Below the pieces are notes generated by a model that saw only the letters and a list, made by a program, of their open reading frames with translations, had not been told where the DNA came from and made no database searches. Below, piece after piece: positions 2,764 to 59,990 of a stretch of DNA of 60,698 bases; positions within the stretch are counted from its first letter, which is position 1, and each line of letters opens with the position of its first letter. The DNA is from a virus (taxonomy: Duplodnaviria > Caudoviricetes), in IMG/VR virus record IMGVR_UViG_3300018481_000007, positions 1 through 60,698 of that record; one strand, 5' to 3'. The translations under genes were made by a program, and so were the position numbers.

Positions 2764-3093
2764 GTGAAGGCCACGGCGATACCGCAGCGGTCCCGGGATC
2801 TCGTACGGTCCCGGGACCGTCACCGGTGTGCTAGGTGCGCGGTCCCGGCACCGACCGGGGAGTGGCACCACCGTCGGTCGCGTTCGGTGCGCGACAGCCA
2901 CACCCACTGTGCCTGCAACGGGGTGTGGTTGTGCAGTCCCTGTCACCGCTGGGCTCATGCCAATCCCGAGGCTGCCCGGGAGACCGGCTTCATCCTGGCG
3001 CGCAACTGCGACACCCCCTGGCTGATGCCGTTCAGACACCCGCTGGACTGGCGGGCACCCGACTGCCAGGGTGGGTGGAGTGGGTCAAGTTAG
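2764..3093 (+). CDS. HNH endonuclease
   Basis: RDRHRCARC...WHHRRSR...NGVWLCSPCHRWAH. Confidence 0.85.
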   Translation: MKATAIPQRSRDLVRSRDRHRCARCAVPAPTGEWHHRRSRSVRDSHTHCACNGVWLCSPCHRWAHANPEAARETGFILARNCDTPWLMPFRHPLDWRAPDCQGGWSGSS

Positions 3094-3106
3094 GTTGCCT
3101 AAGTCA

Positions 3107-3451
3107 ATGAACGAGACCCAGTTCCTGCAGCGGGTGATCGACACCGCTAAGTTGTACGGCTGGCTGGTCTGCCACTTCCGCCCGGCGCGCACCGAGCGGG
3201 GGTGGCGGACCGCCGTCCAGGGGGACTCCGGCTTCGTCGACCTGGTGCTGGCCCGGGGTGGTCAGGTCATCCACGCAGAGTTGAAGGTGGGCACCAAGAA
3301 GCCCCGTCCCGACCAGGTGTCCTGGGGTCACGCGATCGGTGCGACCTACCGGCTCTGGTACCCCGACGACTGGGACGACATCCTGGTCGAACTCAGAACC
3401 CGTCACCCCAGCGCATCGGCCGACCGCGCCGCTCGTTCTCCGCGCGAGTAA
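3107..3451 (+). CDS. VRR-NUC-like PD-(D/E)XK nuclease
   Basis: ETQFLQRVID...GFVDLVL...AELK...Q..W pattern. Confidence 0.8.
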   Translation: MNETQFLQRVIDTAKLYGWLVCHFRPARTERGWRTAVQGDSGFVDLVLARGGQVIHAELKVGTKKPRPDQVSWGHAIGATYRLWYPDDWDDILVELRTRHPSASADRAARSPRE

Positions 3452-3653
3452 ACGCCAGAGCCCGCTTCCTGCTGTGCAGGTTGAGATCCAGGGCCGGTCC
3501 GAACCGCCCGGTGAGCCGGGCGTCGAAGTAGGCGGACTGCCACTCCGCACTCACCTGAGCGTCGAACGCCGCCTTGGCTCCGCTCAGCCACACCAGCCTC
3601 TCCAACGGGTCGTGGGGTGCGTCAGAGAAGTCGATGGTCAGCGCTTCGGTCAT
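3393..3653 (-). CDS. Hypothetical protein, probably leaderless
   Basis: Minus-strand codon bias; TACAGT -10 lies 7 nt before the ATG. Confidence 0.65.
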   Translation of the reverse strand: MTEALTIDFSDAPHDPLERLVWLSGAKAAFDAQVSAEWQSAYFDARLTGRFGPALDLNLHSRKRALAFTRAENERRGRPMRWGDGF

Positions 3654-3655
3654 GG

Positions 3656-3683
3656 TGGACACTGTACCTTTCTGCGGTAGAAT
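3656..3683 (+). promoter_or_regulatory. Sigma70-like promoter TGGACA-N16-TAGAAT, overlapping a divergent -10
   Basis: Lies immediately before ATG 3689. Confidence 0.55.
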
Positions 3684-3688
3684 GAGGT

Positions 3689-6507: not shown

Positions 6508-6578
6508 GGTGCTCCGTTCTAAGTACCTTCTATGTGCCGATCACTTCGCCGGCCCCCAACTGACTTAGACGACCTAAC

Positions 6579-8142: not shown

Positions 8143-11100
8143 TCAGCCCCCTTCCGGTGTCAGGTCGGCGTCCGGGTCGTTGCCGCCGTTGGGTGCCGGA
8201 GAGAGCACCACGTTGACGGTCTCACCCTTCTCGGTGGACTCCACACTGATCGAGTCGAGTTTCTGCCACTGCAGCACCTGTCGGGGTGTGTTGATCGAGC
8301 GCAGCGGCAGCCAGACCCCCGGGATCAACTGCTGGAAGCCGATCCCGGCCTTGGGGGACAGGGTGGAGTTGTCCGGCACCCGCACGATCAGCGGAGCGGG
8401 CCAGCGACCGGCGATGTTGCGCCCCGCCTGGGCGATCAGCGTCTCCTGGGCCTTCGCCAGAGCCGCTGGGGTGAGGATCTCCGTCGACGCGGCCGAGGAG
8501 TCGCTGTAGGACGACGCCAACTGCTCGATCGGACCGTACGGGTAGGTCTTGGCTGGGACCTCGACGGCACCGGCCACCCCGGCGTTGTTGGTGACCGCGA
8601 AGTAGGTCGCCAACTGCATCCCGTACTCGGTCACGATGGGGGAGTCGGAGAAGTCGCCGTCCCGCAGTTCCGGCAGCCGCCCGATGGCCCGGTGGGTGTC
8701 CCAGAGCAGGATCCGCCGGCCCACGGTGGTGTAGTCGAGCCCGGCGGTGGCCGCCAGGTCGTCGACCTCCTCCCAGATCGTGCGGGACCAGTCCGCGACG
8801 ATCCGGGCCTGCTTCGCGTCGTCGGGGTACTCGATGGACGTCAGGTAGGGCAGCACGTTGGGGTCGTACGGGGCCAACCCCTGGATCAGCAACATAGTGG
8901 CTCGCTTGACCACGCTCAGCACACCGGTGCTCTGCTCGGGGATGCTGCCGGAGGCCTTCTGCACCAGCCGGTAGGAGTCGTTGTAGCCCTGCCGCATGAT
9001 CCGGCGGTAGGCGTAGGCCATCACGTCCTTGGCCTCGATCTCGACCGAGTTCTGGGTGTACGCGATCCGGGTGATGGGTCCCTCCCAGACCCGGACCCCG
9101 TCCCGGAAGATCACCAACTCGTGCATCCAGGTGCGGACCGAGCCGTACAACTGACCACAGTCGGCCGAGTAGCCGTTGGAGAAGGCGGTGGCGCTGGAGA
9201 TGTCGTCACGGACCCGGTTGAAGACCAGTCGCCCCATCGGCTCGATCTCCCCGAGCAGCTTCTGCCCGCCCTGCTCGTAGATGAACGCCCGGTAGGTGCC
9301 ACAGCCCAACGAGCCACCGGGGATGAGCACGTCGTCCGCCGAGGGCAGGGGATCGGCCGCCGCCCCGGGGGTGTTCAGGGCATAGAAGTGGAAGGAGTCA
9401 GACCAGCCCGAGGCCAGAGCCATGGCGGTGTCGTAGGTGCGGACCGCCCACTCGTAGGTGTAGTCGGCCGTGAAGGTGTCGGCCTGGATCGCCCAGAACG
9501 TGTCAGCCCCGGGGATGCCGGGGGTGGGTAGGCCGTTCAGTTGGATCCAGCCGTCGTTGGGACCCAGCACAGGGGCGGTCCCGGCGGTCACCTCCTTGGT
9601 GCGGCCCAGGGGCCGGTAGCGGAGGTCCGCCTTCTGCTGCCGGTCGGCGGTGTCGGGGTCGACGAACCGCCAGGAGAAGGTGATGGCGGCGTGGACGTCC
9701 AGAGCCGAGGCCTTAGGCGGACTAAGCAGGACCGGCGGCGAGTTCGTCGACTGCGACCGGAAGGTGAACAGCAGCGACCAGCCACCCCACTGGCTGCGGG
9801 CCGCGTCCCGGGTGCGGACCTGCCACTCCCAGAAGTAGTTGCCGGTGAAGGTGTTGGGGTTGAAGACCCAGAAGTTCTTCGACGACGACGGCGGTCCGGC
9901 GACCACCGGGGAACCGTTCTGGCCGGTGTAGGAGGTGGTGACCACCCAGGCACCGGGTGCGGTGGTCGAGGTCGCCGCCTTGCGGTACTGGAGTTGGAAG
10001 CCGGACTGGTAGTCCGACGGGTCCGGGTCGTTGTGGGTCCAGGTGAAGGTGGCCGAGGAGGTGGAGGGCAGCGTCATGCCGTTGCCCGTGTTGTTGACCG
10101 TCAGGCCCGTGGGCGCGGTCGGGGCACGGTCGGTGTAGAAGGTGAAGCCGCTGTAGGAGACCGAGTACATCCCCTTGGCGTCCTGCGAGTAGACCCGGAC
10201 GTAGTACATCGTGTTGAGCGCCAGCCCGGACAGGGTGGCGGTGGCCACCCTGCCGTTCGCGTGGTAGGTGACCCAGGGCGACCAGGCCGTCTTGTACGAG
10301 GCGAAGTTGCTGGTGGACGAGTAGAGCACCCTCATCCGGACTTTTTGCTTGTTGGTGTCGATCAGGTTGGCCGTGACCTTCACCGACGAGCCAGCCTTGG
10401 TCATCATCCCGTTGGTGACATCGACCCCGTTCAACTTGATGGTGCGCGGGATGGCCGGTGGCTGGTTCGCCGGGGCCGGGGTGACGTAGGTGATGGTCAC
10501 CGCGCCGTTGCCGGTACCGCCGGCACCCTGGGTGTTGGCCGCGCCGCTCAGACCACCGGTGAAGGACGAGCCACCGCCACCGCTGCCGCCGGGTGACTGA
10601 CCCGCCGCCGAGGCCCGGCCACCACCGCCACCGCGCAGACCACCACCGCCACCACCGCCACCGTGACCCGACCCGCTGGGCGGGGCACCACCGGCCGCTC
10701 CCGGGGACAGTGTCTGGTCCCCGGCGTTGGCGCCGTTGTACTTTGCGTTGGTCGGGGAGGCCCCGCCGTTGCCACCCTGGGTCTGGGTGCCACCGGTGGC
10801 GATCCCGGTGACGCTGCCGGTGCCGAACAGCGAGCCGTCGTGGCCCGAGGGACCACCGCCCGCACCACCGAGGGCCCCGTCACCGGAGTTGCCACCCGCA
10901 CCGCCCGCGACCGCCTTCAACGTGCCCGTGGTGGAGCCGATCCGGATGCAGGAGTAGCCGCCACCGCTCCAGCCGCCCCGGTTCCCGCTGCCCAGGCCGT
11001 TGCCGCCCTTGCCACCACCGCCGGAGACCGCCGCGCCACCAGTGGTGGTGCTGTTCGCCCGCCCCGCCTGTCCGACGTGGCAGTAGATCTTCTGGCCTGG

Positions 11101-12560: not shown

Positions 12561-12590
12561 GCACCCCTTCCCTTAGGTTGACTAAGCCGC

Positions 12591-15803: not shown

Positions 15804-15821
15804 GTCGCCTCCTTAGACCGT

Positions 15822-16118
15822 CTAAGCCCGCTGGGCCTGGTGCATGGCCATCGTGGCCATGAAGTCGGACGCCTCGTCCTCGGCCTGGAAGGGTGTCGGC
15901 TCGGCCTTCCGGGCCACCTGGTGGGGTAGCGGCTCGCTGAGCAGGGCGTCCCAGTCGGCCCGCTTCTCCGGCTCCACCCGCTGCACGCACCACCCGTAGA
16001 CCAGGTTCATGAACCGGTACGGGGGTTGGTGAATCAGGTCAAGGCTGGCGTACGCCGCGTCGACTTCTTCCCACCTCTCGGCGGCGATGACGTAGAGGCG
16101 GAGGCACTGGGGAAAGGG
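15822..16118 (-). CDS. Tail assembly chaperone, -1 frameshifted extension
   Basis: -1 frame is open from the slippery site to TAG at 15822-15824. Confidence 0.75.
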   Translation of the reverse strand, partial: PFPQCLRLYVIAAERWEEVDAAYASLDLIHQPPYRFMNLVYGWCVQRVEPEKRADWDALLSEPLPHQVARKAEPTPFQAEDEASDFMATMAMHQAQRA

Positions 16119-18365: not shown

Positions 18366-18384
18366 TGGTTAGGTCGCCTAAGGC

Positions 18385-21941: not shown

Positions 21942-22109
21942 GGGACTTGCTCCTCGGCTCGAAGATGGGGCTGCGCCAAGCGCAAGTCGAGATCCCCGGG
22001 CACCAAGGTCCAGCGGAAGAACTTCCTAGGCCGGGACAGTACACCCAGAACAGGGGGGTCCGCTGCAGGGGGAGTGCTTAGGCTGCCTAAGGCGGCGTAC
22101 CGTCAGGCC

Positions 22110-32684: not shown

Positions 32685-32695
32685 TCTTAGGCCGC

Positions 32696-37561: not shown

Positions 37562-37927
37562 TTCGGTCTGCAGCAGCAGGTCGATCTGGGGGGCGAGCAG
37601 CCCCAGGTCCACGATGGCCAGCCGAGCCAGTTCGTTGTCCCCCAGCAGGATCCGCAGCGCGGTGGTGTCGTCCACGTCCAGCCAGACCACCGGGATCCTT
37701 AGGCTGCCTAACCTCAGACAGGCGGCGTAGGTGGTGTTCCCCGCCAGGATGTAGCCGGTGCTCCGCTGCACGTAGACCGGCCGGTACATGCCGTTGATCT
37801 CGATGGACTCGGTGATCGCGTCCTCGTCCCCGGAGGAGGGGTTGTCCGGGTGTGGCCGGACCATCTCGACCGACTCGAACAGCGGCTCCAGGGAGGGGTG
37901 GAACCTGACGTGGCCGGAGGTGATCAC
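37388..37927 (-). CDS. ParB-like N-terminal (ParB/Srx) domain protein
   Basis: PHPDNP..GD...I.ESI...G..RPV.V....ILAGN. Confidence 0.8.
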   Translation of the reverse strand: MITSGHVRFHPSLEPLFESVEMVRPHPDNPSSGDEDAITESIEINGMYRPVYVQRSTGYILAGNTTYAACLRLGSLRIPVVWLDVDDTTALRILLGDNELARLAIVDLGLLAPQIDLLLQTELRLLGTGYVEPPPVPEPTPIEPGYTVSVHLTGDEMATWFDVPGDNDRQRLAYLFELR

Positions 37928-40821: not shown

Positions 40822-41029
40822 TCTTGGTATCACTGCCTTAGGTCCAAACTGCACTTGACTTTGGCCTCAACCAAACTGCCGGATGGGTACAGGGCTGGAT
40901 TGCGTAGGGGGGCCGGCGATTCGGCCGGAAGCCGTACTAGTGGGGGGTCCGAGCTCGGGATCCGTACGAACCGACCGCGATTAGGTCACCTAACCGCCCG
41001 TTTCACGCTTAATACTGAGTGGACTTGAA

Positions 41030-41058
41030 TTGACTTAGCGTGCACGCCGCGAGACAAT
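41030..41058 (+). promoter_or_regulatory. Promoter TTGACT-N17-GACAAT
   Basis: Consensus match upstream of 41172. Confidence 0.65.
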
Positions 41059-41171
41059 GGGGTTCTTGATCGCGGAAGGACAAGGCAAGGGGAGTCGGTC
41101 GGATGCCGACGAACCGCCCGAAGGATCAAGGCTTAGGCGATCTAATCGCCCCGAAGAAAGGACCGGACACA

Positions 41172-42873: not shown

Positions 42874-42902
42874 TTGACATAGTACGAGCAACCTAGTAAA
42901 CT
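42874..42902 (+). promoter_or_regulatory. Early promoter TTGACA-N17-TAAACT
   Basis: Near-consensus; flanks shared with the promoter at 47718. Confidence 0.85.
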
Positions 42903-43009
42903 GTAGTTTGAAGTGGAGGACTCTGTCCTCACCCCAGCCCCCGGTCGGATGCCGGGGGTTGCTGCGTTCTACCGGGACTTAGGCAACCTAAGTCCGAAAG
43001 GAGCAAGCC

Positions 43010-43204
43010 ATGTCTGACACCGATGTGCACGCCGCACACGCCGAGACCCTGGAGTTGGGTCACTACCGCCGGGTCGTCCGCGAGGAGACCCGCTACCTCA
43101 TCGACGCGCTGCACGCCCTGCGCAACGGCAGCCCCGAGGTGACCGAGGAGTTCCTCGACCGCGCTGTCCTCCACCTGTCCCGCCTGTCCAACCCCACCGC
43201 TTAG
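43010..43204 (+). CDS. Hypothetical protein
   Basis: AAGGAGCAA SD; stop codon lies in a 13-mer. Confidence 0.75.
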   Translation: MSDTDVHAAHAETLELGHYRRVVREETRYLIDALHALRNGSPEVTEEFLDRAVLHLSRLSNPTA

Positions 43205-43232
43205 TCAACCTAAGCAAGAAGGAGCAACCACC

Positions 43233-43757
43233 ATGTCAGTGCGTACCCGCACCATCGTGGCGGCGGCACTCAGTGCCCTCGCCCTAGGTGCCGCATTCGG
43301 TCACGACCGGATGCCCAACGACCTCGCCACGCTTAGTCAACCTAAGCCCGTCACGCCCACCATCGAGCGACCGTGCTCCACCGAGGACGCGGTCGGCCCG
43401 TGCTTCTGGGATGCCGAGGCCCAGGGCAACGGCAAGGGGCTGTCGTTCTGGATCCTGGAGGACGGCACCGTCGCCTACGTCACCGACCGAGCCACCGCCT
43501 ACCGCGCCTACCTCGCGGGCTATGCGGGCAACGGGTGCCAGGCCGACTTCGACGCCAACTACCGGGGCACCCGGTTCGTGCGTGACCTGCCCGAGGACCT
43601 GCAGCAGGAGTTGGCCGAGGGCCGGATGAGCCTGGACTCCGAGGGTCTCACCACCACACCGATGGTCGCCGACTACGGGGACGGGTCGGTGGTCGAGTTG
43701 CTCGATGACGTCATCACCCAGGTCATCGTGGTCGATGCCTACGACGGGCGGTGCTGA
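43233..43757 (+). CDS. Putative secreted/membrane protein
   Basis: Signal-like N-terminus; PC..ED..GPCFWDA...GNG.G.SF. Confidence 0.75.
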   Translation: MSVRTRTIVAAALSALALGAAFGHDRMPNDLATLSQPKPVTPTIERPCSTEDAVGPCFWDAEAQGNGKGLSFWILEDGTVAYVTDRATAYRAYLAGYAGNGCQADFDANYRGTRFVRDLPEDLQQELAEGRMSLDSEGLTTTPMVADYGDGSVVELLDDVITQVIVVDAYDGRC

Positions 43758-44414: not shown

Positions 44415-44450
44415 TCCCGCTTAGGCAACCTAACCCAGAAGGAGCAACCC

Positions 44451-44756
44451 ATGTCCGACCTAACACCCAGCGTCATCTGCGACGACTGCGGTGCCGTCCA
44501 CCCGGCCGAGTTCAGTCACCTCGGTCAGTTCGACCAGGCCCCGGTCTACGCCGTGGTCTGCCCGGTCGACGGGCTCACCGGCTACTACACGACACCGGCG
44601 CTGCTGGCCTACACCACGGCCACGCCGCCGCCGGCAGTGGTCATCGACTACGGGCCGGAGCAGACCCGCTGCGAACTCGACGACCCGCAGACCGGCGGTG
44701 TCTGCCAGCGCAGGCTCACGCCCCGTGGGCACTGCCCGCTGCACGACAAGGCTTAG
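44451..44756 (+). CDS. Cys-rich hypothetical protein
   Basis: 13-mer and SD module upstream. Confidence 0.7.
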   Translation: MSDLTPSVICDDCGAVHPAEFSHLGQFDQAPVYAVVCPVDGLTGYYTTPALLAYTTATPPPAVVIDYGPEQTRCELDDPQTGGVCQRRLTPRGHCPLHDKA

Positions 44757-44858
44757 GCAACCTAAGCCCAGCCCGACCCGCCAGACCCAGCCCCCGGCCA
44801 CCACGGTCGGGGGCTGGCAGCACCACCCCGCAGATTCCACTCAATGAAGGAGCACACC

Positions 44859-45307: not shown

Positions 45308-45459
45308 AGTTCTGCGAATGGCTCCGCGCCAGCGGCCACACCCACCGTGGGCTGTCGTGCCACGAACTCCTTCGTCTCTGGCGGGAGGAGAACGCCCGCG
45401 ACCTGCCCGAACTGCCGACCCATCAACGGGTCACGCTTAGTCAACCTAAGCCTGAGTGA
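45304..45459 (+). CDS. Small hypothetical protein
   Basis: ATGA overlap. Confidence 0.45.
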   Translation: MKFCEWLRASGHTHRGLSCHELLRLWREENARDLPELPTHQRVTLSQPKPE

Positions 45460-46161: not shown

Positions 46162-46399
46162 GCCCAAGGTCCAGGAGCCGGGCATGTTGCTCGGTCGGCT
46201 GCTGACCAGTGAGGGGTGGAGCCAGACCGCCTTCGCCCTGCTGATGGCTGACCTCAGGCAGGGACACCTGGATCCCTACGACCTGGAGTGGCTGGAGGAC
46301 TCGGCCTCGGAGCGGCGGGCTGCCCGTGCCGAGGAGGCCGAGCACGAGCACGAGCAGGCTGCCGAGGCGGAGGAGGCGGAGGATGCCGACGACGCTTAG
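46154..46399 (+). CDS. Acidic hypothetical protein
   Basis: GGAGG SD; stop codon lies in a 13-mer. Confidence 0.65.
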   Translation: MAEPKVQEPGMLLGRLLTSEGWSQTAFALLMADLRQGHLDPYDLEWLEDSASERRAARAEEAEHEHEQAAEAEEAEDADDA

Positions 46400-46656
46400 T
46401 CAACCTAAGCCCAGCCCGGACAAGCAGTGCAGCCTGGGCCGGGTGCATCCGGCCCATCGCTGGTGGTCGCGCAGCCAGCAGTGCTACTTCCACTGCTTCG
46501 GTCGGCGCGAGCCACGCCGCCAGCGCCGGGCGAATCCAGTCAATGAGCCGGCCACCATCTCGGGGGCGTACGCGGTTCACCTCACCCAGTCCGACGACCC
46601 GCCGGTCACCTACCGGCGGGTCACCCGGCGGATTCGACTCAACGAAGGAGGCACCG

Positions 46657-47063: not shown

Positions 47064-47098
47064 TCACCTTAGGCAACCTAACCAAGAAGGAGCAACCA

Positions 47099-47503: not shown

Positions 47504-47721
47504 CCACCACCACCTACTGCATCAACCCGTCGTCGGCGGTGGTGCACACCTGGCTCTGTCAGATCGGACCGGCCAGCAGCCGCACCGTCGGGGGGTACCA
47601 GCCCTTGCCCAGCGTGGTGCTGGACTACCTCCCGTCCCGGCTGTTCTGCCACAACTGCTGCCCGCACCTGGGCAAACAGGCCCGTGCCCGAGAGGGTCAA
47701 GTCGCGTCAAGTCCAGGTTGA
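47500..47721 (+). CDS. Small Cys-containing protein
   Basis: GTGA overlap; VH...C...CHNCCP. Confidence 0.5.
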   Translation: MTTTTYCINPSSAVVHTWLCQIGPASSRTVGGYQPLPSVVLDYLPSRLFCHNCCPHLGKQARAREGQVASSPG

Positions 47722-47746
47722 CATAAGCCGGTCAACCTGGTATACT
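47713..47746 (+). promoter_or_regulatory. Early promoter TTGACA-N17-TATACT with an overlapping 10-bp inverted repeat
   Basis: -35 at 47718-47723, -10 at 47741-47746; CCAGGTTGAC-N8-GTCAACCTGG. Confidence 0.85.
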
Positions 47747-47937
47747 GTAGTCAAGAGTTGAACCAGGCGGTCAATCAAGTCAACGTCTGGTTAGGTCATC
47801 TAAGAGGGGCACGGTCCAGGACCGTGCCCCTTGTTCTGCGTTCCCACCACCGAGAGGCACCGCATGGTCCGAGGTCCACCCAGTCCACCGTTCACCCCGA
47901 CCCGCTTAGGCAACCTAATCAACAAGGAGCAACCGAC

Positions 47938-48780: not shown

Positions 48781-48814
48781 CTTAGGCAACCTAACCAACA
48801 AGGAGCAACCCAAC

Positions 48815-49645: not shown

Positions 49646-49677
49646 ACCCGCTTAGTCAACCTAAGAGAGAGCAACCA

Positions 49678-51335: not shown

Positions 51336-51787
51336 CACCACGACCGGTCGACAACGAGGACCTGTACTTCGCCGCCTTGCAGCAGATGGCTCGGGACTAC
51401 CCGCACTACCTGGAGTGTCGAGGTGGCCAGCACCTGATGGAGTTGGTCGAGCCGTTCCGGGTCGTCGACTCACGGACCGAACTGGACGAGAAAGGTCACC
51501 GGCTGCACGCCCACATGGGGCACGACGTGTACGCCCGACGACAGTTCGAGTGCACCCGGTGCGGGAAGAAGCGGTTCGACTTCTACGAGATCTCCTCGTA
51601 CCGGGGTCACATGATGCTGCGGCGGATCAACGCCGGGTACCAGGACCCACCAGGCTTCGCCATCCTCGGGCTGGGCCGGATGCCCAACGCCCGGGGACTG
51701 GTGATGGGGATGGCACTGGAGGCAGAGATCAGTGCCATCCCAGTGCGGGGCAGGGGCCGACCCAAGAAAGGAGGTGGTGCCGCTTAG
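51332..51787 (+). CDS. Zinc-binding protein with AT-hook-like tail
   Basis: LECR...H...CTRCG; RGRGRPKK. Confidence 0.7.
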   Translation: MTPRPVDNEDLYFAALQQMARDYPHYLECRGGQHLMELVEPFRVVDSRTELDEKGHRLHAHMGHDVYARRQFECTRCGKKRFDFYEISSYRGHMMLRRINAGYQDPPGFAILGLGRMPNARGLVMGMALEAEISAIPVRGRGRPKKGGGAA

Positions 51788-51869
51788 ACCGCCTAAGCAA
51801 GACAAGTCCATTCGTATCAACTACACTCATACCCAGTAGCAACCACTCATGTAAAGGAACCACATTCAG

Positions 51870-53067: not shown

Positions 53068-53088
53068 GTTAGGCGAACTAAGCACGAC

Positions 53089-53122: not shown

Positions 53123-53160
53123 CATTTCAGGAGCAACCAACAACTGGAAGAAGAACAACC

Positions 53161-54433: not shown

Positions 54434-54468
54434 GTGACGTAAGGTTCCTGCACTGATATAATGCAGAA

Positions 54469-54512: not shown

Positions 54513-54614
54513 CTTGTCTTCACGCGCGCCCACACCCGGATGAAGATGGTGTCGGTTCTGTGAAGTCAGGCTTAGGCAACCTAAGATTTTCATCAACCAA
54601 CAGAAGGAGCAGCA

Positions 54615-54902: not shown

Positions 54903-54914
54903 GGTCACAGATGT

Positions 54915-54953: not shown

Positions 54954-54959
54954 TCGAGG

Positions 54960-55430
54960 AGCAACCAACCCATCGAACATCCACTCACTGGAAGGAGGTA
55001 AGCACCACCCGGGGAAAGGAACCCGGTTTGCTTCACCGCTGCGCATTGCCGTGTGCGTAACCAGCGGGTCCTGTCCATCCGCTCGTGAAAGCAGTCCCCA
55101 TGCTACTCACACCGACGTCAGTCGACATAAGCCCATGTCACCGATAGGTTGGTGGAAGGTTTTGACCCCGCATCCGTTAGCGCGGACCGGGGTCTTGGTC
55201 GGTGGAACAAAGCGAAACACCGACGCGCACAGTCTACTGGTACGGACCAGTTCTGCGCACCCCGGAAAGGACTACCCGCTCGTCGGGGATGCCTCCCTGT
55301 TCCCCTCCGGCCAGGCCACTCACCCTCGTGGGAGTGACGGCTTGCTGATGCAACAACCGGAGATGTCTTGCAGGGCGTTGACCGACGGGACCACCCGTAC
55401 CAAGGGAAGGATCTGCCCACTTCCCACCGC
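54960..55430 (+). ncRNA. Candidate large structured non-coding RNA
   Basis: No convincing CDS; more than 10 nested and adjacent helices, some with G-U pairs. Confidence 0.55.
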
Positions 55431-55565
55431 CCAAACCTGACCCCTCTTAGATCGTCTAAGTCAAGACCCACCCCCACTGGCATGTCGCTTGCCGTAGCGG
55501 CAGAGTCAGACAGCACCACCCAGTCCCCTCAGGAGCAGCCACATGTCCTTCACGACCCCACTCGC

Positions 55566-57170
55566 ATGACCGCCATCGAGACCGTCACCGCCCGCCTCGA
55601 CCGGGTACAGCGGAACGGCACATCCACTCTCGCCTCCTGTCCCGTCTCCTCGCACGGACGAGGCAACGGTGACCGCAACCCCTCCCTCTCCGTGACCGAG
55701 CAGCACGGCAAGGTGCTGCTGAACTGCATGTCCGGATGTCACGTCCAGGACGTGATGGTCGCGCTCGACCTCGACTGGGGTGACCTGTTCGACGAGCCGA
55801 TCACCAACAGCAAGGGCGTGATGGTGGCCGAGTGGCTCTACACCCTGCCCGACGGCAGCGACCACCTGGTGGTCGAACGGTGGAACACCCCTGGGGGTGG
55901 TAAGCGGTTCGTCCAGCGACGACCGGGACACACCGCTGCCGAAGGTCTGGGCTCGGGGTTCTGGAACGTGCTGTACCGACTGCCGAAGGTGATCGCGGCG
56001 GCGAAGGCGGGCGAGCCCATCTGGATCGTGGAGGGGGAGAAGTGCGTGGCTGCGGCCGAGCGCCTCGGACTCACGGCCACCACCGGACCTGGCGGGGCGA
56101 AGAACTGGAAGGACTACTACGGCAAGTGGCTGGTCGGGGCACCGGTGGTGAACATCGTCAGCGACAACGACGACGTGGGCCGGGCCTACGCCAGCATGGT
56201 CGCGGCCTCGTTGAAGGGCCGGGGGATCAAGACCAGGACGTGGGCGGTCGCGGTCCCCGGGGAGAAGGCCGACCTCTACGACCACGTGCTCGCGGGCAAG
56301 GGTGTGGCCGACCTGGTGCCGACCAGGCTGAACCAGTTCAGACCCGAGGGCAGCATCGCGGGCTGCCTGCTGGGCAAGGAGTTCCCACCGGTGGAGTGGG
56401 TGATCAGGGACCTGATGCCGATCGGGTTCACGGTGCTCGGCGGGGCACCGAAGGTGGGTAAGTCCTTCCTCGCGCTCGATGCCGCGATGAACGTGGCGAC
56501 CGGCGGGCAGTTCATGCACACCCAGCAGTGCGAGCGGGGCTCGGTGCTCTACCTGAGTTTGGACAATGACGCTGAGTGGCGGCTGCAACTACGGCTGCGG
56601 CACCTGCAGATGCAGTACGGGGTGAGTCTGGCCGACACCGACATCGAGTTCCACTGCGACTTCCCGACCGGAGAGGCGGGCATCCAGGGGATCGCGGAGT
56701 GGTGCGCCGAACGGCGGGACGAGGGGAAGAAGCCACTGCTGGTGGTGGCCGACACCATCGGCAAGGCCGAGCCCAACTTCGACGGCAGCAACGCACGGGG
56801 TGAGACGTCCAACGGCGGCTACCAGGGCAGCACCCAGAACCTGAGCAAGTGGTCACGGCTGGCACTGGAGCAGCGGATCGGAATCCTGGGCGTGCACCAC
56901 ATCCGCAAGTCCGGTGACGACGACTGGACGAACCGGTTCATCGGCTCGCAGGGGATCGTGGCCACCGCCACCACGCTGATGATGCTCGACCCGAAACAGC
57001 GAGGCTCCAGCGAGGGGGTCCTGCACGTCACCTCACGCGACGCGGGCGACCACGAGTTGGAGGTACGGCGGGACGGCTGGTCGTGGCAGTTGATCGAGGA
57101 GGCCAAGGGTGAGCGGATCGTCACCAAGGGCAACGGTGGCCTGAGGGTCATCCCGGGAGGACAGGCTTAG
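55566..57170 (+). CDS. DNA primase-helicase (Zn-binding, TOPRIM, AAA_25/RepA-like)
   Basis: CPVSSH..D.NPSLSV...NCMSGC; IVEGEK; DNDDVG; GAPKVGKS; VADT; VHHIRK. Confidence 0.9.
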   Translation: MTAIETVTARLDRVQRNGTSTLASCPVSSHGRGNGDRNPSLSVTEQHGKVLLNCMSGCHVQDVMVALDLDWGDLFDEPITNSKGVMVAEWLYTLPDGSDHLVVERWNTPGGGKRFVQRRPGHTAAEGLGSGFWNVLYRLPKVIAAAKAGEPIWIVEGEKCVAAAERLGLTATTGPGGAKNWKDYYGKWLVGAPVVNIVSDNDDVGRAYASMVAASLKGRGIKTRTWAVAVPGEKADLYDHVLAGKGVADLVPTRLNQFRPEGSIAGCLLGKEFPPVEWVIRDLMPIGFTVLGGAPKVGKSFLALDAAMNVATGGQFMHTQQCERGSVLYLSLDNDAEWRLQLRLRHLQMQYGVSLADTDIEFHCDFPTGEAGIQGIAEWCAERRDEGKKPLLVVADTIGKAEPNFDGSNARGETSNGGYQGSTQNLSKWSRLALEQRIGILGVHHIRKSGDDDWTNRFIGSQGIVATATTLMMLDPKQRGSSEGVLHVTSRDAGDHELEVRRDGWSWQLIEEAKGERIVTKGNGGLRVIPGGQA

Positions 57171-57317
57171 GCGATCTAAGGAGCAGCAGACCCCACCACG
57201 TGGACAGAATGGTGGGTAGCAGGACCGAACAGAGCGAGCCCCTACCTGGGTGCCAGGTACGGGGTTCGTGCCCTTAGAGGGGCACACAGCGGAGCAACCA
57301 CACGAGAGGAACGACCC

Positions 57318-57539
57318 ATGGCTATCGCCACCGAAGAAGACACCAAGCCCACCTGCCCCTGCTGCGAAGGGACGGGGATGCACGGGCACCGAGCGCGCGT
57401 CTCACCCAGCCCCGACGACGACAGCGAGGGCTGCACCAACTGCGGGGAGCGGGGGACCACCTGGTTCACCGACGCCCGGCCCCGCTCCTGCACCGGCTAC
57501 CGGGCCATGATGCGGAGGGTGAACCATGCGTCCCGCTGA
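57318..57539 (+). CDS. Small zinc-finger protein (CxxCxGxG type)
   Basis: CPCCEGTG...CTNCGERG. Confidence 0.6.
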   Translation: MAIATEEDTKPTCPCCEGTGMHGHRARVSPSPDDDSEGCTNCGERGTTWFTDARPRSCTGYRAMMRRVNHASR

Positions 57540-58659
57540 GTTGCTCGGGATGCAGGCCGACTTCCTGCGTCGGTACTCAGTAGTCCCCGACGAGAACCCC
57601 GACACCCGGATGCTGATGGTCCAGGTGACCGCGATCGACCGGCAGCTGACGGCCATCGAGACCGGCACGACGCTGAGCAGCGGCGACCTGTCCAACACGA
57701 TCCGGGCGGGTGAGTACCCGCCGATGGCACACGCTGCCGTGCAGCACTGCGCCCGGGCAGCGCAGGGCGGGATGCCGATCATGGTCAGCCCGCAGATGGT
57801 GGACCTGGTGACCTGGGTGGCGAACGACTTCTCCGACACCGAGACCTGCGACCTCGGCATCATGCCGTCGCCGTACGGGTTCGTCTGGCTGGACAAGCCG
57901 TTCATCAGCCCCGGTGCGGTCGAACGCTCAGGCTCATCGGTCGCCGTCGGGGACCGGATCGACCCGGACACCCACATCGACCTGATCGTGTGGTGCCCGG
58001 TCCCCCGACCCGAGCGCCGTGACGTGCACGCCACCGCCTTCCTCGGCTTCAACTCATCGCTCCGTCCCGACGGCATCACCACCGCGTGGAACGAGGGGTC
58101 CATGAAGGACGGGTTCCGACCGCACCCCTACAACATGTGCTTCCTGTCGGCGCTCATCCAGGGCGAGCGGCTGGGGGACCGGGACTACGGGCCGATGTTC
58201 TGCCGCCCGATCGTCTACGACGCCACACCGGCGGAGAAGGACTTCCTCGACGTGGACGGCAACCCGGTCCGTGAGGGGCAGCGGCTGATGGAGTACGCCA
58301 CCTGGAACGGGGCGAACATGCAGCGCTGGCTGTACGCCCTGTGGGTGGTGATGGGTCAGGAGATCGCCCATCTCCAGGAGGAGCAGGCGGACCGGGCCAC
58401 CAAGCGCCGAATGACACGGATGAAACTCCCGCCCGCCATCACCGTCGTAACCCTCCGTCGCCCAGCCAACCCACACCGCAACGAAGGCGACGGACACGTC
58501 GAGTGGCAGTGGCACTGGATGGTAAGGGGTCACCCGAGATGGCAGGCGTGCGGCCCTGGTCGGAAGGAGCGCAAGTTGATCTGGGTGAATCCCCATTTGA
58601 AAGGAAACCTCGATGCGCCACTTCATCAGACCACCAAGGTCTACAAGGTGTCGAGATGA
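57526..58659 (+). CDS. Hypothetical protein with conserved VRGHxRxQxxGPG...IWxxPHxKG C-terminus
   Basis: GGAGG SD; motif. Confidence 0.8.
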   Translation: MRPAELLGMQADFLRRYSVVPDENPDTRMLMVQVTAIDRQLTAIETGTTLSSGDLSNTIRAGEYPPMAHAAVQHCARAAQGGMPIMVSPQMVDLVTWVANDFSDTETCDLGIMPSPYGFVWLDKPFISPGAVERSGSSVAVGDRIDPDTHIDLIVWCPVPRPERRDVHATAFLGFNSSLRPDGITTAWNEGSMKDGFRPHPYNMCFLSALIQGERLGDRDYGPMFCRPIVYDATPAEKDFLDVDGNPVREGQRLMEYATWNGANMQRWLYALWVVMGQEIAHLQEEQADRATKRRMTRMKLPPAITVVTLRRPANPHRNEGDGHVEWQWHWMVRGHPRWQACGPGRKERKLIWVNPHLKGNLDAPLHQTTKVYKVSR

Positions 58660-58934
58660 CCCATCAGCCGAACACCCCGCGCATCCGCAACGAGCGGGGG
58701 GAGAAGGTCGACGAGCCCGTGCAGTGCGTGCAGTGCCTCCAGACCTGGCCGTGCGAGGTGATGCTGCTGAGCCGGGAGATCGTCCGGCTCGGTGCGGAGA
58801 ACCACAGGCTGCGGGCTGAGTCGGTGCACGCCCCTGCCGCCTTGTACGGCAAGCCGGGTCGCGAGCCGATCTGCGACTTCGACTGCGACTACTGCCACGA
58901 GGACTCCACCCTCTCGGAAGGACACGAGACATGA
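58656..58934 (+). CDS. Small Cys-rich protein
   Basis: CVQC.QTWPC. Confidence 0.65.
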   Translation: MTHQPNTPRIRNERGEKVDEPVQCVQCLQTWPCEVMLLSREIVRLGAENHRLRAESVHAPAALYGKPGREPICDFDCDYCHEDSTLSEGHET

Positions 58935-59191
58935 CCGACGTGAACGATGCCATCGCCGAGGTGTGGAACGTGGCGATGGGCACGGCTCCCGCGACAGCCC
59001 AGTTCGCTCGCAGGGTCGAGGCGGCAGTGACCGCTGAGATCACACGACTCCAGGGCGAACTCGCCGCCGTGCGCGACCGACTCGATGTCGAACGGAAGGA
59101 GCACACCGAGGAGATGCGGGATGCGGGTCGGGACTACCGCGAAATGCAGTCCGAGATCGACGCGCTCCAGCGAGAGAGGGAGGGATGGTGA
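58931..59191 (+). CDS. Coiled-coil protein
   Basis: ATGA overlap. Confidence 0.7.
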   Translation: MTDVNDAIAEVWNVAMGTAPATAQFARRVEAAVTAEITRLQGELAAVRDRLDVERKEHTEEMRDAGRDYREMQSEIDALQREREGW

Positions 59192-59451
59192 GCGACGAGA
59201 CCATCCGGGTGCCGAGGTCGGACCCGCTCTACCAGGCCTGGATCTGGCGGCAGGACTCGGCTCTGCTGTTCCGGCTGCGGCCGATCCTGGAGCGGCTCCG
59301 GTACGTGCCCGACCAGCCGTGCGTGCTGGGCCAGACGTACTCCTGCCAGGTGAACGGGCAGACGTGCAGCCCGTGCGCCATCCGCCAGATCAAGATCGAA
59401 CTGTTCGGAACACCCACCACAGAGGAGCACCATGACGTTCAACCCGACTGA
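59185..59451 (+). CDS. Hypothetical protein
   Basis: GGAGG SD. Confidence 0.6.
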   Translation: MVSDETIRVPRSDPLYQAWIWRQDSALLFRLRPILERLRYVPDQPCVLGQTYSCQVNGQTCSPCAIRQIKIELFGTPTTEEHHDVQPD

Positions 59452-59758
59452 ACCCGTCGACACCGAAGCCAGGCTGCTGGACCTGGAGCAGAAGGCCCGC
59501 ACCCTGGCGCTGTCGGCGGCTCGACCCCTGCTGACCGCACAGGGGCTGACCAGCAGGACGCCGCCGGACGTGAACGACCTGATCCGGCTGGCCCAGTGGA
59601 TCCTCGACGGCGAGTACGAGGACCTCTACCCGTTCCTGAACGGGGACGTGATCGTGCTCGGACCGGAGATCTTCGCAGCCAGCGGTGGCGATGTCATCTG
59701 CTGGAAGGGCAGGAACTACGTACTGGAGGATGACGAAGACGGGCATGACAATGACTGA
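59432..59758 (+). CDS. Hypothetical protein (LGPEIFA..DVICWKGRNY)
   Basis: GAGGAG SD. Confidence 0.7.
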   Translation: MTFNPTEPVDTEARLLDLEQKARTLALSAARPLLTAQGLTSRTPPDVNDLIRLAQWILDGEYEDLYPFLNGDVIVLGPEIFAASGGDVICWKGRNYVLEDDEDGHDND

Positions 59759-59990
59759 GTTAGGCAACCTAAGCCTGGACGTCAACAGCGCCATCGAGCG
59801 GGCCAGCAAGAAGTGGGACCCGGTGGCCAGCCACACCGACCACGAGGCCGCCTACCTCGACCGGTTCGTGCTGGCTGCCGAGGTGCTGATCCTGCGGCAG
59901 GAACTGGCCGACACCCAGGACGCACTCGACGAGGCAGAACGGGAGGTGGAGACCCTGCAGCGCGCACTCCAGAACATCGACTTCGAGTAG
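59745..59990 (+). CDS. Coiled-coil protein
   Basis: Contains an in-frame 13-mer. Confidence 0.6.
   Translation: MTMTELGNLSLDVNSAIERASKKWDPVASHTDHEAAYLDRFVLAAEVLILRQELADTQDALDEAEREVETLQRALQNIDFE

Follow-up and report, generated by a model that had tools for sequence, protein, structure and literature searches.

The closest published analogue of the repeat described here comes from the Cluster O mycobacteriophages, whose 17 bp repeat is unexplained; Corndog carries 34 palindromic copies with invariant arms, which its authors read as sites for dimeric proteins in the section of PMC4351075 on the repeat. The same section reports insertions and deletions flanked by repeats, and the phages that carry these analogous repeats have genes for proteins with ParB-like domains as well (PMC4351075). 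The ESAS inverted repeats of Cluster K are also associated with translation starts, in the account that PMC3203893 gives of them. Stoperators resemble the present sites in distribution, whereas the present sites would differ by symmetric recognition. A first-pass annotation had found no described system to match the motif; the Cluster O repeat is such an analogue.

The window analysed here, a stretch of 60,698 nucleotides, is the complete 60.7 kb genome of a soil phage. It holds 31 exact matches to TTAG-N5-CTAA (TTAGNNNNNCTAA), spread from 3090 to 59772 over its whole length, where 0.02 are expected from 100 dinucleotide-preserving shuffles (largest count 1) and 0.14 from plain base composition. 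The motif is all-or-none in the window: one-mismatch variants over the eight fixed positions number zero, and the 27 two-mismatch sites are at background level. The spacer rule D-Y-N-R-H proposed earlier holds at 31 of 31 sites, position 1 never being C, position 2 being C or T, position 4 being A or G, and position 5 never being G. Because the arms are invariant and the five central nucleotides vary within a symmetric rule, the pattern suggests selection by a reader rather than copy-paste. The commonest centre is GCAAC (eight on the plus strand, plus its complement at 3090), followed by TCAAC (five, plus its complement at 12573). On the flanks, C is favoured at -1 and G at +1; 18 sites read CTTAG-N5-CTAAG, and the GGAC/GTCC extension reported at 42975 is real. 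The sites had been described as purely symmetric, which is correct only in part: 15 of the 16 CAAC-type centres are oriented with transcription. Nor is the motif a host repeat, since 185,579 species genomes gave 12 single scattered matches to the 17-mer form and no multi-copy match.

We compared the window with 14 related records. A strongly over-represented palindrome is present in 13 of them, in 8-72 copies, and its sequence differs in almost every lineage. The motif of the window itself is shared only by a 13 kb fragment, G009, with three copies; what relatives conserve is the system, not the sequence. The spectrum is as sharp in relatives as in the window: counts of exact, one-mismatch and two-mismatch copies are 38/3/0 in G001, 33/3/0 in G004 and 19/0/0 in G014, and G006 has the private repeat TTAKCC-NN-GGMTAA in 15-19 copies. 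Motifs differ even between phages with 78-86% portal identity (the window, G005, G006 and the L060/L061/L123 group), which makes a host factor an unlikely reader. Judged from these sequences, the differing palindromes point to a fast-evolving, phage-encoded DNA-binding system.

The same comparison bears on whether the sites could be priming or loading sites for the T7 gp4-like primase-helicase (55566-57170). Before a repeat was recognised in the seemingly motif-less G006, this gene alone was present in every motif-bearing complete genome and missing from G006, and Okazaki fragment lengths resemble the mean site spacing of ~2 kb. This correlation collapsed with the private repeat of G006, where a DnaB-like helicase takes the place of the primase-helicase. 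Conservation of the zinc-binding and TOPRIM regions is, moreover, even across phages whose motifs differ, and known primases of the T7 gp4-like class read trinucleotides. We give this explanation almost no credence.

We asked where the sites lie relative to genes. With automated gene calls, 24 of 31 sites are not fully within a gene, as against 12.0% of positions outside gene interiors (binomial P = 9e-17); placement is also non-coding for 32 of 33 sites in G004 and 26 of 38 in G001. The automated starts at 41133, 47069 and 59760 were corrected by reading a Shine-Dalgarno sequence and ATG downstream, and the ORF at 36701-37561, missed by the automated caller, was added by hand. After correction, 26 of 31 sites are intergenic or on a stop codon and five are intragenic (9713, 26664, 36851, 37699 and 43333). 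Of the 31 window sites, 15 to 16 share letters with the upstream stop codon or sit at most 6 nt past it, and the next start codon is a median of 19 nt downstream in six genomes, including the window, G001 and G004. The typical order in very short intercistronic DNA is stop codon, site, Shine-Dalgarno sequence and start codon. Where the gap is larger, the site stays close to the upstream stop rather than to the following start, as at 44753, 46396, 51784, 53069 and 57167. Compaction alone may account for the adjacency to start codons, which would then tell little about function. Sites occur in all modules and in both transcription directions, as first noted.

All sites come from an exact motif search and carry no strand. 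At the left end, the TAG of TTAGGTTGCCTAA (3090..3102) is the stop of the ORF at 2764-3093, with the ATG at 3107 of a VRR-NUC-like gene 4 nt on. TTAGACGACCTAA (6565..6577) lies 1 nt past the stop of the minus-strand gene 6579-7502, and TTAGGCGGACTAA (9713..9725) within a 1032-aa minus-strand gene (8143-11241). The 1070-aa gene 12591-15803 has a site at both ends: TTAGGTTGACTAA (12573..12585) is 5 nt past its stop and 15 nt ahead of the start of 11241-12557, and TTAGACCGTCTAA (15813..15825) is 9 nt ahead of its start and overlaps the stop of the ORF at 15822-16757. By tblastn, the products of 18385-19287 and 20334-21941 match the major tail and major head protein genes of Arthrobacter phage Tank; TTAGGTCGCCTAA (18369..18381) sits 3 nt past the stop of the former, and TTAGGCTGCCTAA (22078..22090) 136 nt ahead of the start of the latter. 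TTAGGCCGACTAA (26664..26676) is within an 871-aa minus-strand gene (25973-28588), and TTAGGCCGCCTAA (32687..32699) overlaps the stop of 32696-33238 and is 2 nt ahead of the start of 32331-32684. TTAGACGACCTAA recurs at 36851..36863 within a DNA methyltransferase gene (36701-37561), and TTAGGCTGCCTAA at 37699..37711 within a ParB-like gene (37388-37927).

In the region 40001-60000, sigma-70-like promoters were predicted on the plus strand at 41030..41058 (TTGACT-17-GACAAT, which is context and not part of the motif), 42874..42902 (TTGACA-17-TAAACT), 47718..47746 (TTGACA-17-TATACT, with TG) and 54434..54462 (GTGACG-17-TATAAT, with TG). These are consensus matches only, four against 1.7 +/- 1.2 in shuffles. 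Among the RNA runs searched, none contained this phage. Every one of these predicted early promoters (4 of 4) is followed by a site 45-110 nt downstream. In the divergent control region, TTAGGTCACCTAA (40981..40993) is 37 nt upstream of the first promoter, and TTAGGCGATCTAA (41133..41145) is ~75 nt downstream of it and 26 nt ahead of the ATG at 41172. TTAGGCAACCTAA with the GGAC/GTCC extension (42979..42991) is 77 nt past the second promoter and 18 nt ahead of the ATG at 43010. TTAGTCAACCTAA at 43201..43213 provides in its TAG the stop of 43010-43204, 19 nt ahead of the ATG at 43233, and its copy at 43333..43345 is within the ORF 43233-43757. TTAGGCAACCTAA then appears 17 nt ahead of the ATG at 44451 (44421..44433) and, through its TAG, as the stop of 44451-44756 (44753..44765). 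TTAGTCAACCTAA occupies an intergenic gap from 45307 to 45548 (45437..45449), and a further copy (46396..46408) supplies in its TAG the stop for 46154-46399. TTAGGCAACCTAA at 47069..47081 is 5 nt past the stop at 47063 and 17 nt ahead of the ATG at 47099. TTAGGTCATCTAA (47791..47803) is 45 nt past the third promoter, and TTAGGCAACCTAA (47906..47918) is 19 nt ahead of the ATG at 47938. A further TTAGGCAACCTAA (48782..48794) falls 1 nt past the stop at 48780 and 20 nt ahead of the ATG at 48815, and TTAGTCAACCTAA (49652..49664) falls 6 nt past the stop at 49645 and 13 nt ahead of the ATG at 49678. The TAG of TTAGACCGCCTAA (51784..51796) is the stop of 51332-51787, and TTAGGCGAACTAA (53069..53081) follows the stop of the SSB gene (52624-53067) by 1 nt. 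TTAGGCAACCTAA (54572..54584) is 110 nt past the fourth promoter and 30 nt ahead of the start at 54615. TTAGATCGTCTAA (55447..55459) is in a 664-nt non-coding stretch ahead of the primase-helicase gene, whose stop is the TAG of TTAGGCGATCTAA (57167..57179). The last site, TTAGGCAACCTAA (59760..59772), is 1 nt past the stop of 59432-59758.

This placement could also be explained if the sites acted in RNA, as intercistronic or 5'-UTR signals just upstream of the ribosome-binding site through which a phage RNA-binding protein or nuclease would control translation, processing or mRNA stability. Their proximity to starts, together with their position downstream of predicted promoters, implies that nearly all of them are transcribed, and the Cluster K repeats offer a parallel. 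The asymmetric letters follow the sense strand, in the CAAC-type centres of the window and by 13 to 1 in G006. The equivalent repeat of Tank is predicted to form a stable hairpin (mean -15.3 kcal/mol), and in the leftward-transcribed part of that genome 18 of ~24 copies have GCAA, GTAA or GTGA loops in sense orientation. Oriented letters of this kind are predicted by an RNA-level or polar function and not by a purely symmetric DNA reader; a sense-strand excess of A in intergenic DNA (941 A vs 770 T) explains only part of them. However, compensatory covariation is absent. Five window sites have g..g as their -1/+1 flanks and five have c..c, and G006 has mixed half-sites, TTAGCC..GGATAA, in 13 of 18 sites (mixed G..A 13 and T..C 1; paired T..A 2 and G..C 2), a majority form that cannot fold, with its G.A mismatch and a loop of only 2 nt. 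The predicted hairpins of the window sites are weak (mean -4.3 kcal/mol, some at 0 kcal/mol), and the central base on the sense strand of G001 has no bias (C 19, G 19). Recognition of single-stranded RNA needs no perfect two-fold symmetry, and the five sites within coding sequence and those that hug the upstream stop in larger gaps also fit an RNA signal badly. An RNA-level element is unlikely. Given half-sites without covariation and weak hairpins, the reading that fits best is a symmetric phage-encoded protein that recognises duplex DNA, and we consider the sites to be, with good probability, protein sites on duplex DNA.

The repeats might instead have no dedicated reader, being gene-cassette junctions or a tiny palindromic mobile element homogenised by recombination and copy-paste, with recombination between repeats driving gene gain and loss as the Cluster O insertions and deletions would suggest. 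We read strain variants from soil-metagenome contigs of close strains in four runs. One variant, present in 2 of 4 runs, is missing precisely the cassette 43008-43230, with seven shared letters at the join (43007 to 43231). Another, in 3 of 4 runs, has 53085-54456 replaced by 41 letters, beginning 3 nt past the site at 53069, and a third join begins at 51785. The site together with a ribosome-binding block (AGGAGCAACC, 10 copies) also looks duplicated in the right arm. Yet invariant arms around a freely varying centre are the opposite of copy-paste homogenisation, and decayed copies are absent. The overlap at the 43007/43231 join fits GGAGCAA, the sole 7-letter run common to the two ribosome-binding blocks there, which is absent from the 13-mer. 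We found no Y1 transposase, integrase or resolvase in the 60.7 kb window, and to our knowledge 13 nt is shorter than any known mobile unit. We regard this explanation as very improbable.

To look for the reader, we scanned 60 window proteins with Pfam and 30 with PHROG, and neither named a helix-turn-helix or ribbon-helix-helix (RHH) protein. The five candidates put forward earlier (41172, 40533, 32331, 53161 and 53933) gained no support. At its start the 40533 protein resembles a ribbon-helix-helix, with a tblastn homologue in one relative only (G006, 52%); G001 and G004 have similar small proteins at their switch regions. G006, G002, G001 and G004 all lack the 53161 and 53960 genes. The leading candidate, though contested, is the minus-strand product of 37388..37927, in which a ParB N-terminal-like domain is joined to a C-terminal ribbon-helix-helix-like dimer module (residues ~146-179); we name it tentatively as the best candidate binder. 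Its N-domain matches ParB by PDB profile (E = 2.5e-8) and ParB-CTP structures by Foldseek (E = 8e-5). The C-terminal 44 residues are predicted to form an antiparallel strand dimer (score 0.42 vs 0.16 for the best control; pLDDT 76), with at least 97% of contacts in agreement between runs; 20 of 30 known pairs attained that mark, as did 1 of 23 single chains. Among conserved proteins, this C-terminus is the sole DNA-binding-like module that is hypervariable, and it is the predicted DNA-facing strand residues that vary (S/H in the window, S/Y in G005, T/T in G006, H/H in G002 and I/S in G013).

Such a protein could use the sites without regulating genes, as loading or nucleation points on duplex DNA from which it marks, bridges or organises the phage's own DNA under a private address code, for instance for packaging choice, protection or compartment formation. 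All 8 of the larger relatives tested carry its gene, as does Tank, and in G001 and Tank it lies immediately upstream of the terminase genes; sites lie within the two longest genes of the window, G001 and G002, and the ParB-like proteins of Cluster O phages are a precedent. Against this, the C-terminus fits the motifs poorly: G002 and L085 share one motif but differ in C-terminal type, G001 and G008 have a Cys-rich tail in its place with the same site architecture, and L057 and L059 have the same strand residues although L059 lacks the motif of L057. From what is established for RHH-DNA complexes, one RHH dimer cannot reach both arms, 9 bp apart. The ParB CTP motif is GERRxRA, and its arginines are replaced in this protein by AGNTTYAAC. 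ParA was not found in the window, which makes the segregation role once suggested unlikely. Even spacing of sites finds no support either, the largest gap being no smaller than under random placement (P = 0.16 for the window, with further values of 0.39 and 0.12). With 259 records, ParB-N proteins are widespread among actinobacteriophages, and co-occurrence of motif and ParB-like gene is therefore weak evidence. Non-regulatory loading is, on balance, rather doubtful.

Taken together, the first-pass proposal of a dimeric protein binding across the genome stands in that the sites are real and widespread and a symmetric reader of duplex DNA fits them best, but no binder was identified. That this reader is phage-encoded and acts on transcription through intercistronic DNA we hold at about even strength; if the sites are indeed protein sites on duplex DNA, an effect on transcription is slightly favoured. 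The 31 copies of cTTAG-DYNRH-CTAAg would then be recognition sites of a symmetric, probably homodimeric, protein whose likeliest effect is on transcription crossing intercistronic junctions, with operators or roadblocks across the genome serving timing or shut-off during a lytic cycle. The main new result, from the comparison of related records, is that private palindromes are family-wide: specificity would be private to each lineage, with relatives keeping the arrangement while the site sequence, and presumably the reading residues of the protein alongside it, changed.

The window, a single contig of 60,698 bp with 66.7% G+C and an exact 95 bp terminal repeat, represents a complete phage genome, and IMG/VR classes it among records with direct terminal repeats. 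The first-pass annotation had reported 31 copies of a palindromic 13-mer, TTAG-N5-CTAA, and this count was borne out: the pattern TTAGNNNNNCTAA occurs 31 times, far over the 0.02 copies expected from dinucleotide shuffles and the 0.14 expected from base composition alone. The spacer rule proposed at the same time (not C, pyrimidine, any base, purine, not G) is obeyed by all 31 sites. The TTAG and CTAA arms form an exact inverted repeat in every site, and the spacer rule is symmetric too. Flanking bases show a preference for C at -1 and G at +1, such that 18 sites read CTTAG-N5-CTAAG. When the eight fixed letters were considered, we found no one-mismatch copy in the window, and the 27 two-mismatch copies equal background. 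The 13-mer is all-or-none. Nucleotide searches of the phage collection with the window gave no match, and a 15-mer scan of viral contigs returned 21 single matches in low-GC contigs, which is chance level. A metagenome scan added only short contigs, no bacterial genome with multiple copies of the 17-mer was found, and none of the public RNA runs listed contained this phage. We also found no published description of the motif or of its phage family, with the caveat that short sequences are poorly searchable and that supplements were set aside.

We examined where the sites lie relative to genes called by codon bias. Transcription runs rightward over the first 6.3 kb and the last 19.6 kb of the window and leftward over the structural genes (33238 to 6313), and a divergent control region occupies 40797-41171. 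In the automated count, 24 of the 31 sites lay outside gene interiors, compared with 12.0% of positions (binomial 9e-17). Three automated starts were corrected to a downstream ATG with a Shine-Dalgarno sequence and a missed ORF (36701-37561) was added by hand, after which 26 of 31 sites were intergenic or overlapped a stop codon, and five (9713, 26664, 36851, 37699 and 43333) were intragenic. Both arms of the genome are occupied, with 20 of 31 sites in 40981-59772. Between called genes, 22 of the 39 gaps of at least 20 nt contain or touch a site. The stop codon of the upstream gene is overlapped, or lies at most 6 nt away, at 15-16 sites, and a start codon follows within 70 nt in 20 of 31 (median 19 nt). 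The usual order at a junction is thus stop codon, site, Shine-Dalgarno sequence and start codon, with hardly any spare DNA. In larger gaps the site adjoins the upstream stop codon, away from the next start, and because it keeps to the stop, we attribute the constant distance from site to start to compaction and not to a functional register.

Sigma-70-like promoters were predicted four times in 40001-60000, compared with 1.7 +/- 1.2 in shuffles, and each of the four has a site 45-110 nt downstream, suggesting that the 13-mer is transcribed and is not itself the promoter. A promoter element was rejected on this ground and on a second: read by eye, the sense strands of the motifs of the window and of two related phage records, G001 and G004, contain no -10 hexamer of the TANNNT type. 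An activator site centred near -41 was also rejected, as the transcription start would then fall past the start codon. Upstream of the primase-helicase gene, 664 nt (54903-55565) lack any coding signal, GC3 being about 0.6 in each of the six frames. The stretch begins with a strong hairpin and contains a single site, and its counterpart in the relative G005 resembles it on both strands. Rfam returned no family for this stretch, where either a replication origin or a non-coding RNA could lie.

By terminase, the nearest named phages are Arthrobacter, Curtobacterium and Microbacterium phages at 44-47% identity, and the window motif was present in none of five such records. We retrieved uncultivated relatives via the primase-helicase, the portal and a 371-aa early protein; they are described here by the identity of their portal to that of the window. 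G009, a 13 kb fragment at 93-94%, has the window's own motif in three copies. G005 (85-86%) carries TTAAGG-N3-CCTTAA in 12 exact and three one-mismatch copies. The loci L060 and L061 (84-85%) each have three copies of TCTCAGG-NN-CCTGAGA, which is also present 9-10 times in 8 kb of L123, a locus with 80% identity in the 371-aa protein. At greater distance we found TTAKCC-NN-GGMTAA in G006 (78-80%; 15-19 copies, plus three with a 1-nt spacer), tTCAGT-N3-ACTGAa in G002 and G003 (73-75% for G002; 25 and 11 copies), GTTCC-N4-GGAAC in G007 (71%; 8-16 copies), GTTCACT-S-AGTGAAC in G001 (68-70%; 38 copies), TCTAGT-W-ACTAGA in G004 (69%; 33 copies) and GGTTCTGT-NN-ACAGAACC in G008 (66-68%; 10-15 copies). 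G013 and G014 carry TTAAC-N4-GTTAA (10 copies) and TTCAGA-N-TCTGAA (19 copies), respectively. In G010 (loci L135-L137; portal 40%) the 8 bp palindrome AGGGCCCT occurs 72 times, where 2 are expected, and Arthrobacter phage Tank (L055/L056, NC_041961.1; portal 35%) has about 29 copies of GGTCGG-N4-CCGACC. The scan of G011 gave nothing beyond codon-periodic repeats. Short portal loci yielded further motifs in L070, L076, L080 and L086, and motif calling resolved none in L058, L059, L077 and L078, among others.

A strongly over-represented palindrome was therefore present in 13 of the 14 records examined, and the window's motif only in G009. These motifs are as sharp as that of the window: exact, one-mismatch and two-mismatch copies number 38, 3 and 0 in G001, 33, 3 and 0 in G004, 19, 0 and 0 in G014, and 29, 0 and 6 in Tank. 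Placement in G004 is also that of the window, with 32 of 33 sites outside gene interiors. The key result is that the relatives have kept the system and not the site sequence.

Since motifs differ between phages at 78-86% portal identity and the 17-mer is multi-copy in no bacterial genome, the comparison indicates that a symmetric reader of duplex DNA must be encoded by the phage. Parts of two regulator boxes, CIRCE and the DtxR/IdeR iron box, probably look like the window motif. A host regulator box was nevertheless rejected: neither box is related to the motifs of the relatives, which differ from one another even when close, and multiple copies of the 17-mer were found in no bacterial genome. 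A restriction or methylation site was rejected as well: between 12 and 16 bases are fixed in the relatives' motifs, and methyltransferases are encoded by some of the genomes only. The reading to which we commit is that a symmetric phage protein would bind duplex DNA at the intercistronic sites and modulate transcription through them, the sites serving as operators or roadblocks for timing or shut-off. Competition among co-infecting relatives may have driven the private specificity of each lineage. The first-pass annotation had proposed a dimeric protein bound across the genome; the family-wide private palindromes strengthen this proposal, which we regard as plausible.

The transcribed position of the sites raises the alternative that the element acts at the level of RNA. 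Orientation argues for this to some extent. The CAAC-type centres of the window are aligned with transcription in 15 of 16 cases, the mixed sites of G006 are aligned 13 to 1, the central base of G004 is A in 22 sites and T in 11, and in the leftward part of Tank GCAA, GTAA or GTGA loops are sense-oriented in 18 of about 24 copies. The other 15 window centres are mixed in orientation and the arms carry none. Sense strands of intergenic DNA have an excess of A (941 A, 770 T), and this excess together with common descent of site-plus-ribosome-binding-site blocks explains part of the polarity, though perhaps not all of it. Against a hairpin, be it of RNA or of single-stranded DNA, base changes do not compensate. 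Compensation is absent at the -1 and +1 flanks of the window (g..g, n = 5; c..c, n = 5), and the commonest form in G006 (13 of 18 sites) joins a TTAGCC half to a GGATAA half, leaving a G.A mismatch and a 2-nt loop, whereas the paired forms number only 2 and 2. Hairpins of the window motif have little stability (mean MFE -4.3 kcal/mol, some 0), the central base of G001 on the sense strand is C in 19 sites and G in 19, and an Rfam search found no family. Of 13 terminator-like matches in 40001-60000, one coincides with a site (54571-54585). We rejected a structured RNA or intrinsic terminator on the weak mean MFE, the non-compensating flanks and this single overlap, and we consider any RNA-level role of the element improbable. 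In Tank, an RNA role may well be the main one, because the repeat there is a stable hairpin (mean -15.3 kcal/mol, mostly intergenic); a term search of the paper describing Tank (PMC5513430) met no mention of such repeats.

In the search for the reader, no classical DNA-binding domain was named by Pfam in 60 window proteins or by PHROGs in 30, and no immunity repressor was recognised in the 60 Pfam-scanned proteins. The domains named were two C5 methyltransferases, a ParB-like protein, a Rad52-like recombinase, an exonuclease, an SSB, a VRR-NUC-like nuclease and the primase-helicase. The two C5-cytosine DNA methyltransferase genes, 36701-37561 (+) and 38022-38645 (-), flank the ParB-like gene, and among the relatives only some (G002, G008) have genes of this kind. 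Integrase or resolvase (PF00589, PF00239) had no match in four of four genomes, and neither ParA (PF13614, PF01656) nor the Y1 (RAYT) transposase (PF01797) had a match in five of five. These phages look lytic, and a partition or REP-like role is not likely.

The leading candidate is the ParB-like protein at 37388-37927 (-), the sole conserved family with a hypervariable module. Its N-terminal domain is ParB-like by PDB profile (E = 2.5e-8) and by Foldseek (E = 8e-5, TM about 0.45). The last 44 residues are modelled as a strand and two helices, with a predicted antiparallel ribbon pairing centred on residue 149. The pairing score was 0.42, a mark that 20 of 30 known pairs attain, as does 1 of 23 single chains, compared with 0.16 for the best control; runs agreed in at least 97% of contacts and pLDDT was 76. 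The C-terminus is accordingly predicted to form a ribbon-helix-helix-like (RHH) dimer. Among the strand residues, the core is conserved and the outward-facing ones, predicted to face DNA, differ in every lineage. The protein is modular: in the window and in L046, L049, L054, L111, L114, L117 and L120, a conserved ParB-N domain is joined to one of three kinds of C-terminus, two of them ribbon-helix-helix-like and one a Cys-rich CPxCGH tail. The N-terminal CTP-binding domain of ParB carries the motif GERRxRA. The corresponding position in the phage protein reads AGNTTYAAC, with the arginines in none of eight aligned relatives, and no helix-turn-helix domain was found in it.

The comparative evidence that this protein binds the palindrome is mixed, and part of it contradicts the assignment. 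G002 and the L085 lineage share a motif and differ in type of C-terminus; G001 and G008 have the Cys-rich tail instead with the site architecture unchanged; and L057 and L059 have the same strand residues, yet L059 lacks the motif of L057. The missing CTP-motif arginines also count against it, and ParB-N proteins are common in actinobacteriophages, in 259 records, none of which spans the C-terminus. We therefore put the protein forward as the reader only tentatively, and the assignment is more doubtful than not.

Other candidates were rejected. In a presence/absence screen, no gene other than the primase-helicase was shared by every complete genome with a motif and missing from G006, and this correlate is void because G006 carries the imperfect palindrome TTAKCC-NN-GGMTAA, which the exact-arm scan had missed. 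G006 (L114) is otherwise syntenic with the window and has undergone a replication-module swap, in which an HTH-like protein and a DnaB-like helicase (34487-36411) replace the ZBD-TOPRIM-helicase fusion found at 55566-57170 in the window. The families of the conserved small proteins at 54615, 51870, 52333, 3393 (-), 32331 and 32696 gave alignments without a hypervariable DNA-reading segment. The first early protein, 41172-42149, was empty in Pfam and PHROG, and an atlas search led to nameless viral clusters and a weak DUF3102 lead. Nothing ties the RHH-like protein at 40533-40796 (-) to the 31 sites. Its gene opens the leftward early operon; the N-terminus is ribbon-helix-helix-like (IRLTLSEKTLARVDEERG...WIRDLI) and the tail is rich in Cys. 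By tblastn, G006 alone among the relatives has a homologue (52% identical), and small proteins resembling it occur in the switch regions of both G001 and G004.

Two further observations concern genes near the packaging module. The gene at 32696-33238 (-) sits at the small-terminase position and has a PHROG match labelled 'RNase E' (E = 2e-17). Its product contains a conserved segment, GATWxEIAxTLGYPTPRQA, that is helix-turn-helix-like. Among solved structures, a profile search gave no match at E below 0.1, so the label looks doubtful. Between the packaging genes and the methyltransferase, two paralogous genes, 33356-34498 and 34500-35621 (+), have BclA_C/C1q-like C-termini below the Pfam cut-off and form one family with 6579-7502, a likely tail-fibre protein.

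Close-strain contigs from three soil-metagenome runs of one study, which differ at 883 bases, revealed that cassettes are gained and lost beside sites. In one variant 43007 is joined to 43231 and gene 43010-43204 is gone; seven shared letters at the join fit GGAGCAA, the sole 7-letter run common to both ribosome-binding blocks. In another, two genes are replaced from 53084 to 54457, starting 3 nt past a site, and a third join connects 51785 and 51851. The ribosome-binding block itself, AAGGAGCAACC, is present in 10 near-identical copies in the window (for example 42992-43009, 43214-43232 and 47082-47098), with 9-11 copies in G006 and 7-9 in G005, independent of each phage's palindrome. Breaks at or next to repeated junctions suggest that the junction repeats also act as recombination points, and we take recombination to be a by-product because centres vary and there are no decayed copies. 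A mobile element of the REP/RAYT or MITE type was rejected, with no PF01797 match in five of five genomes, no one-mismatch copies and a unit of only 13-15 bp.

Among described cases, the 17 bp repeat of Cluster O mycobacteriophages such as Corndog comes closest. This repeat, TGTTCGG-N3-CCGAACA, has 34 copies in Corndog and about three one-change variants, and its authors infer a dimeric DNA-binding protein and leave the function unexplained (PMC4351075). The likeness extends to more than 30 copies with invariant inverted arms, a variable centre and almost no near-misses; to genome-wide placement that is denser in the non-structural arm, often in short intergenic DNA and sometimes intragenic; and to phages that are not obviously temperate and encode proteins with ParB-like domains (PMC4351075). 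The two differ in geometry, 7-N3-7 there and 4(5)-N5-4(5) in the window. About one third of the Corndog sites are intragenic (PMC4351075) compared with 5 of 31 here, and five Cluster O genomes share one motif, whereas nearly all relatives of the window have their own. The Cluster O sequence was not among the motifs found in the window or its relatives, and the likeness defines a descriptive class and not a homology family, homology between the phage groups having been compared for the ParB-N domain only. Genome-wide invariant palindromes in non-temperate actinobacteriophages have thus been in print since 2015 without explanation, and the window's family offers what five near-identical genomes could not, namely many diverged motif sets.

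The stoperators of Cluster A phages (L5, Bxb1) are similar in having a 13 bp site in about 30 copies, in lying in short intergenic spaces genome-wide and often touching start or stop codons, and in a sequence that varies by sub-lineage together with the repressor (PMC9283540, PMC4351075). The window shares with them its tens of intergenic sites; asymmetry of the site, integrase or partition genes and a repressor were not found in it. Stoperators are asymmetric, strictly oriented sites of a monomeric repressor in temperate phages, whereas the arms of the window motif are palindromic and only some free positions are oriented. Cluster K start-associated sequences and their extended forms (ESAS) are also repeats tied to translation starts with unexplained function, and ESAS are inverted repeats just upstream of starts whose consensus varies by subcluster (PMC3203893). 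The start-associated sequence includes the ribosome-binding site itself, whereas the window 13-mer is separate and upstream of the Shine-Dalgarno sequence, and ESAS have imperfect 17 bp arms and a variable spacer of 4-13 bp, compared with an exact 13-mer here (PMC3203893). In large gaps, the 13-mer follows the upstream stop codon instead.

The KorB operator (OB) of plasmid RK2, ParB-parS and Noc-NBS are likewise palindromes of about 13-16 bp scattered over a replicon, with a ParB-family reader able to silence genes, and the window also encodes a ParB-N-like protein. The OB core in a printed oligonucleotide, TTTAGCGGCTAAA (PMC11790492), has TTAG and CTAA arms in common with the window motif and an arm spacing of N3 instead of N5. 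The window protein differs in lacking the CTP-motif arginines and a helix-turn-helix and in its predicted RHH-like tail, and no ParA was found. The main rival to our reading holds that the sites are non-regulatory, ParB-like marks. Even spacing, a spacing that keeps gaps short and a coating range were not supported, as the largest gaps of 5.6-6.0 kb are not below random placement (P = 0.16, 0.39 and 0.12). We prefer the reading of sites that modulate through-transcription. Should the sites gate transcription one gene at a time, stoperators would have a symmetric counterpart outside lysogeny. Should the ParB-N/RHH fusion be the reader, the idea of scattered ParB/KorB sites would extend to lytic phages, and to a member that has no HTH and apparently does not use CTP.

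Across many related genomes of this family, the site sequence has changed repeatedly while copy number and placement stayed constant. The private motifs are compact lineage markers for uncultivated soil phages, and exact, portable operator/reader pairs are possible orthogonal parts for high-GC hosts. The repeated change of site makes for a tractable problem in co-evolution, in which the reader could be found by covariation with more complete genomes. A further reading, which we think unlikely, is that this lytic soil actinobacteriophage-like family uses a fast-evolving private address code, in which about 10-70 intercistronic positions of each genome carry an exact palindrome specific to the lineage. 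A modular ParB-N fusion would read the tags, its C-terminal ribbon-helix-helix or zinc module being swapped or retuned between lineages, and the phage would act on its own DNA only, with co-infecting relatives excluded or ignored. If true, this would allow silencing, protection or packaging choice on a phage's own DNA, and would amount to an immunity-like specificity race in phages without lysogeny.
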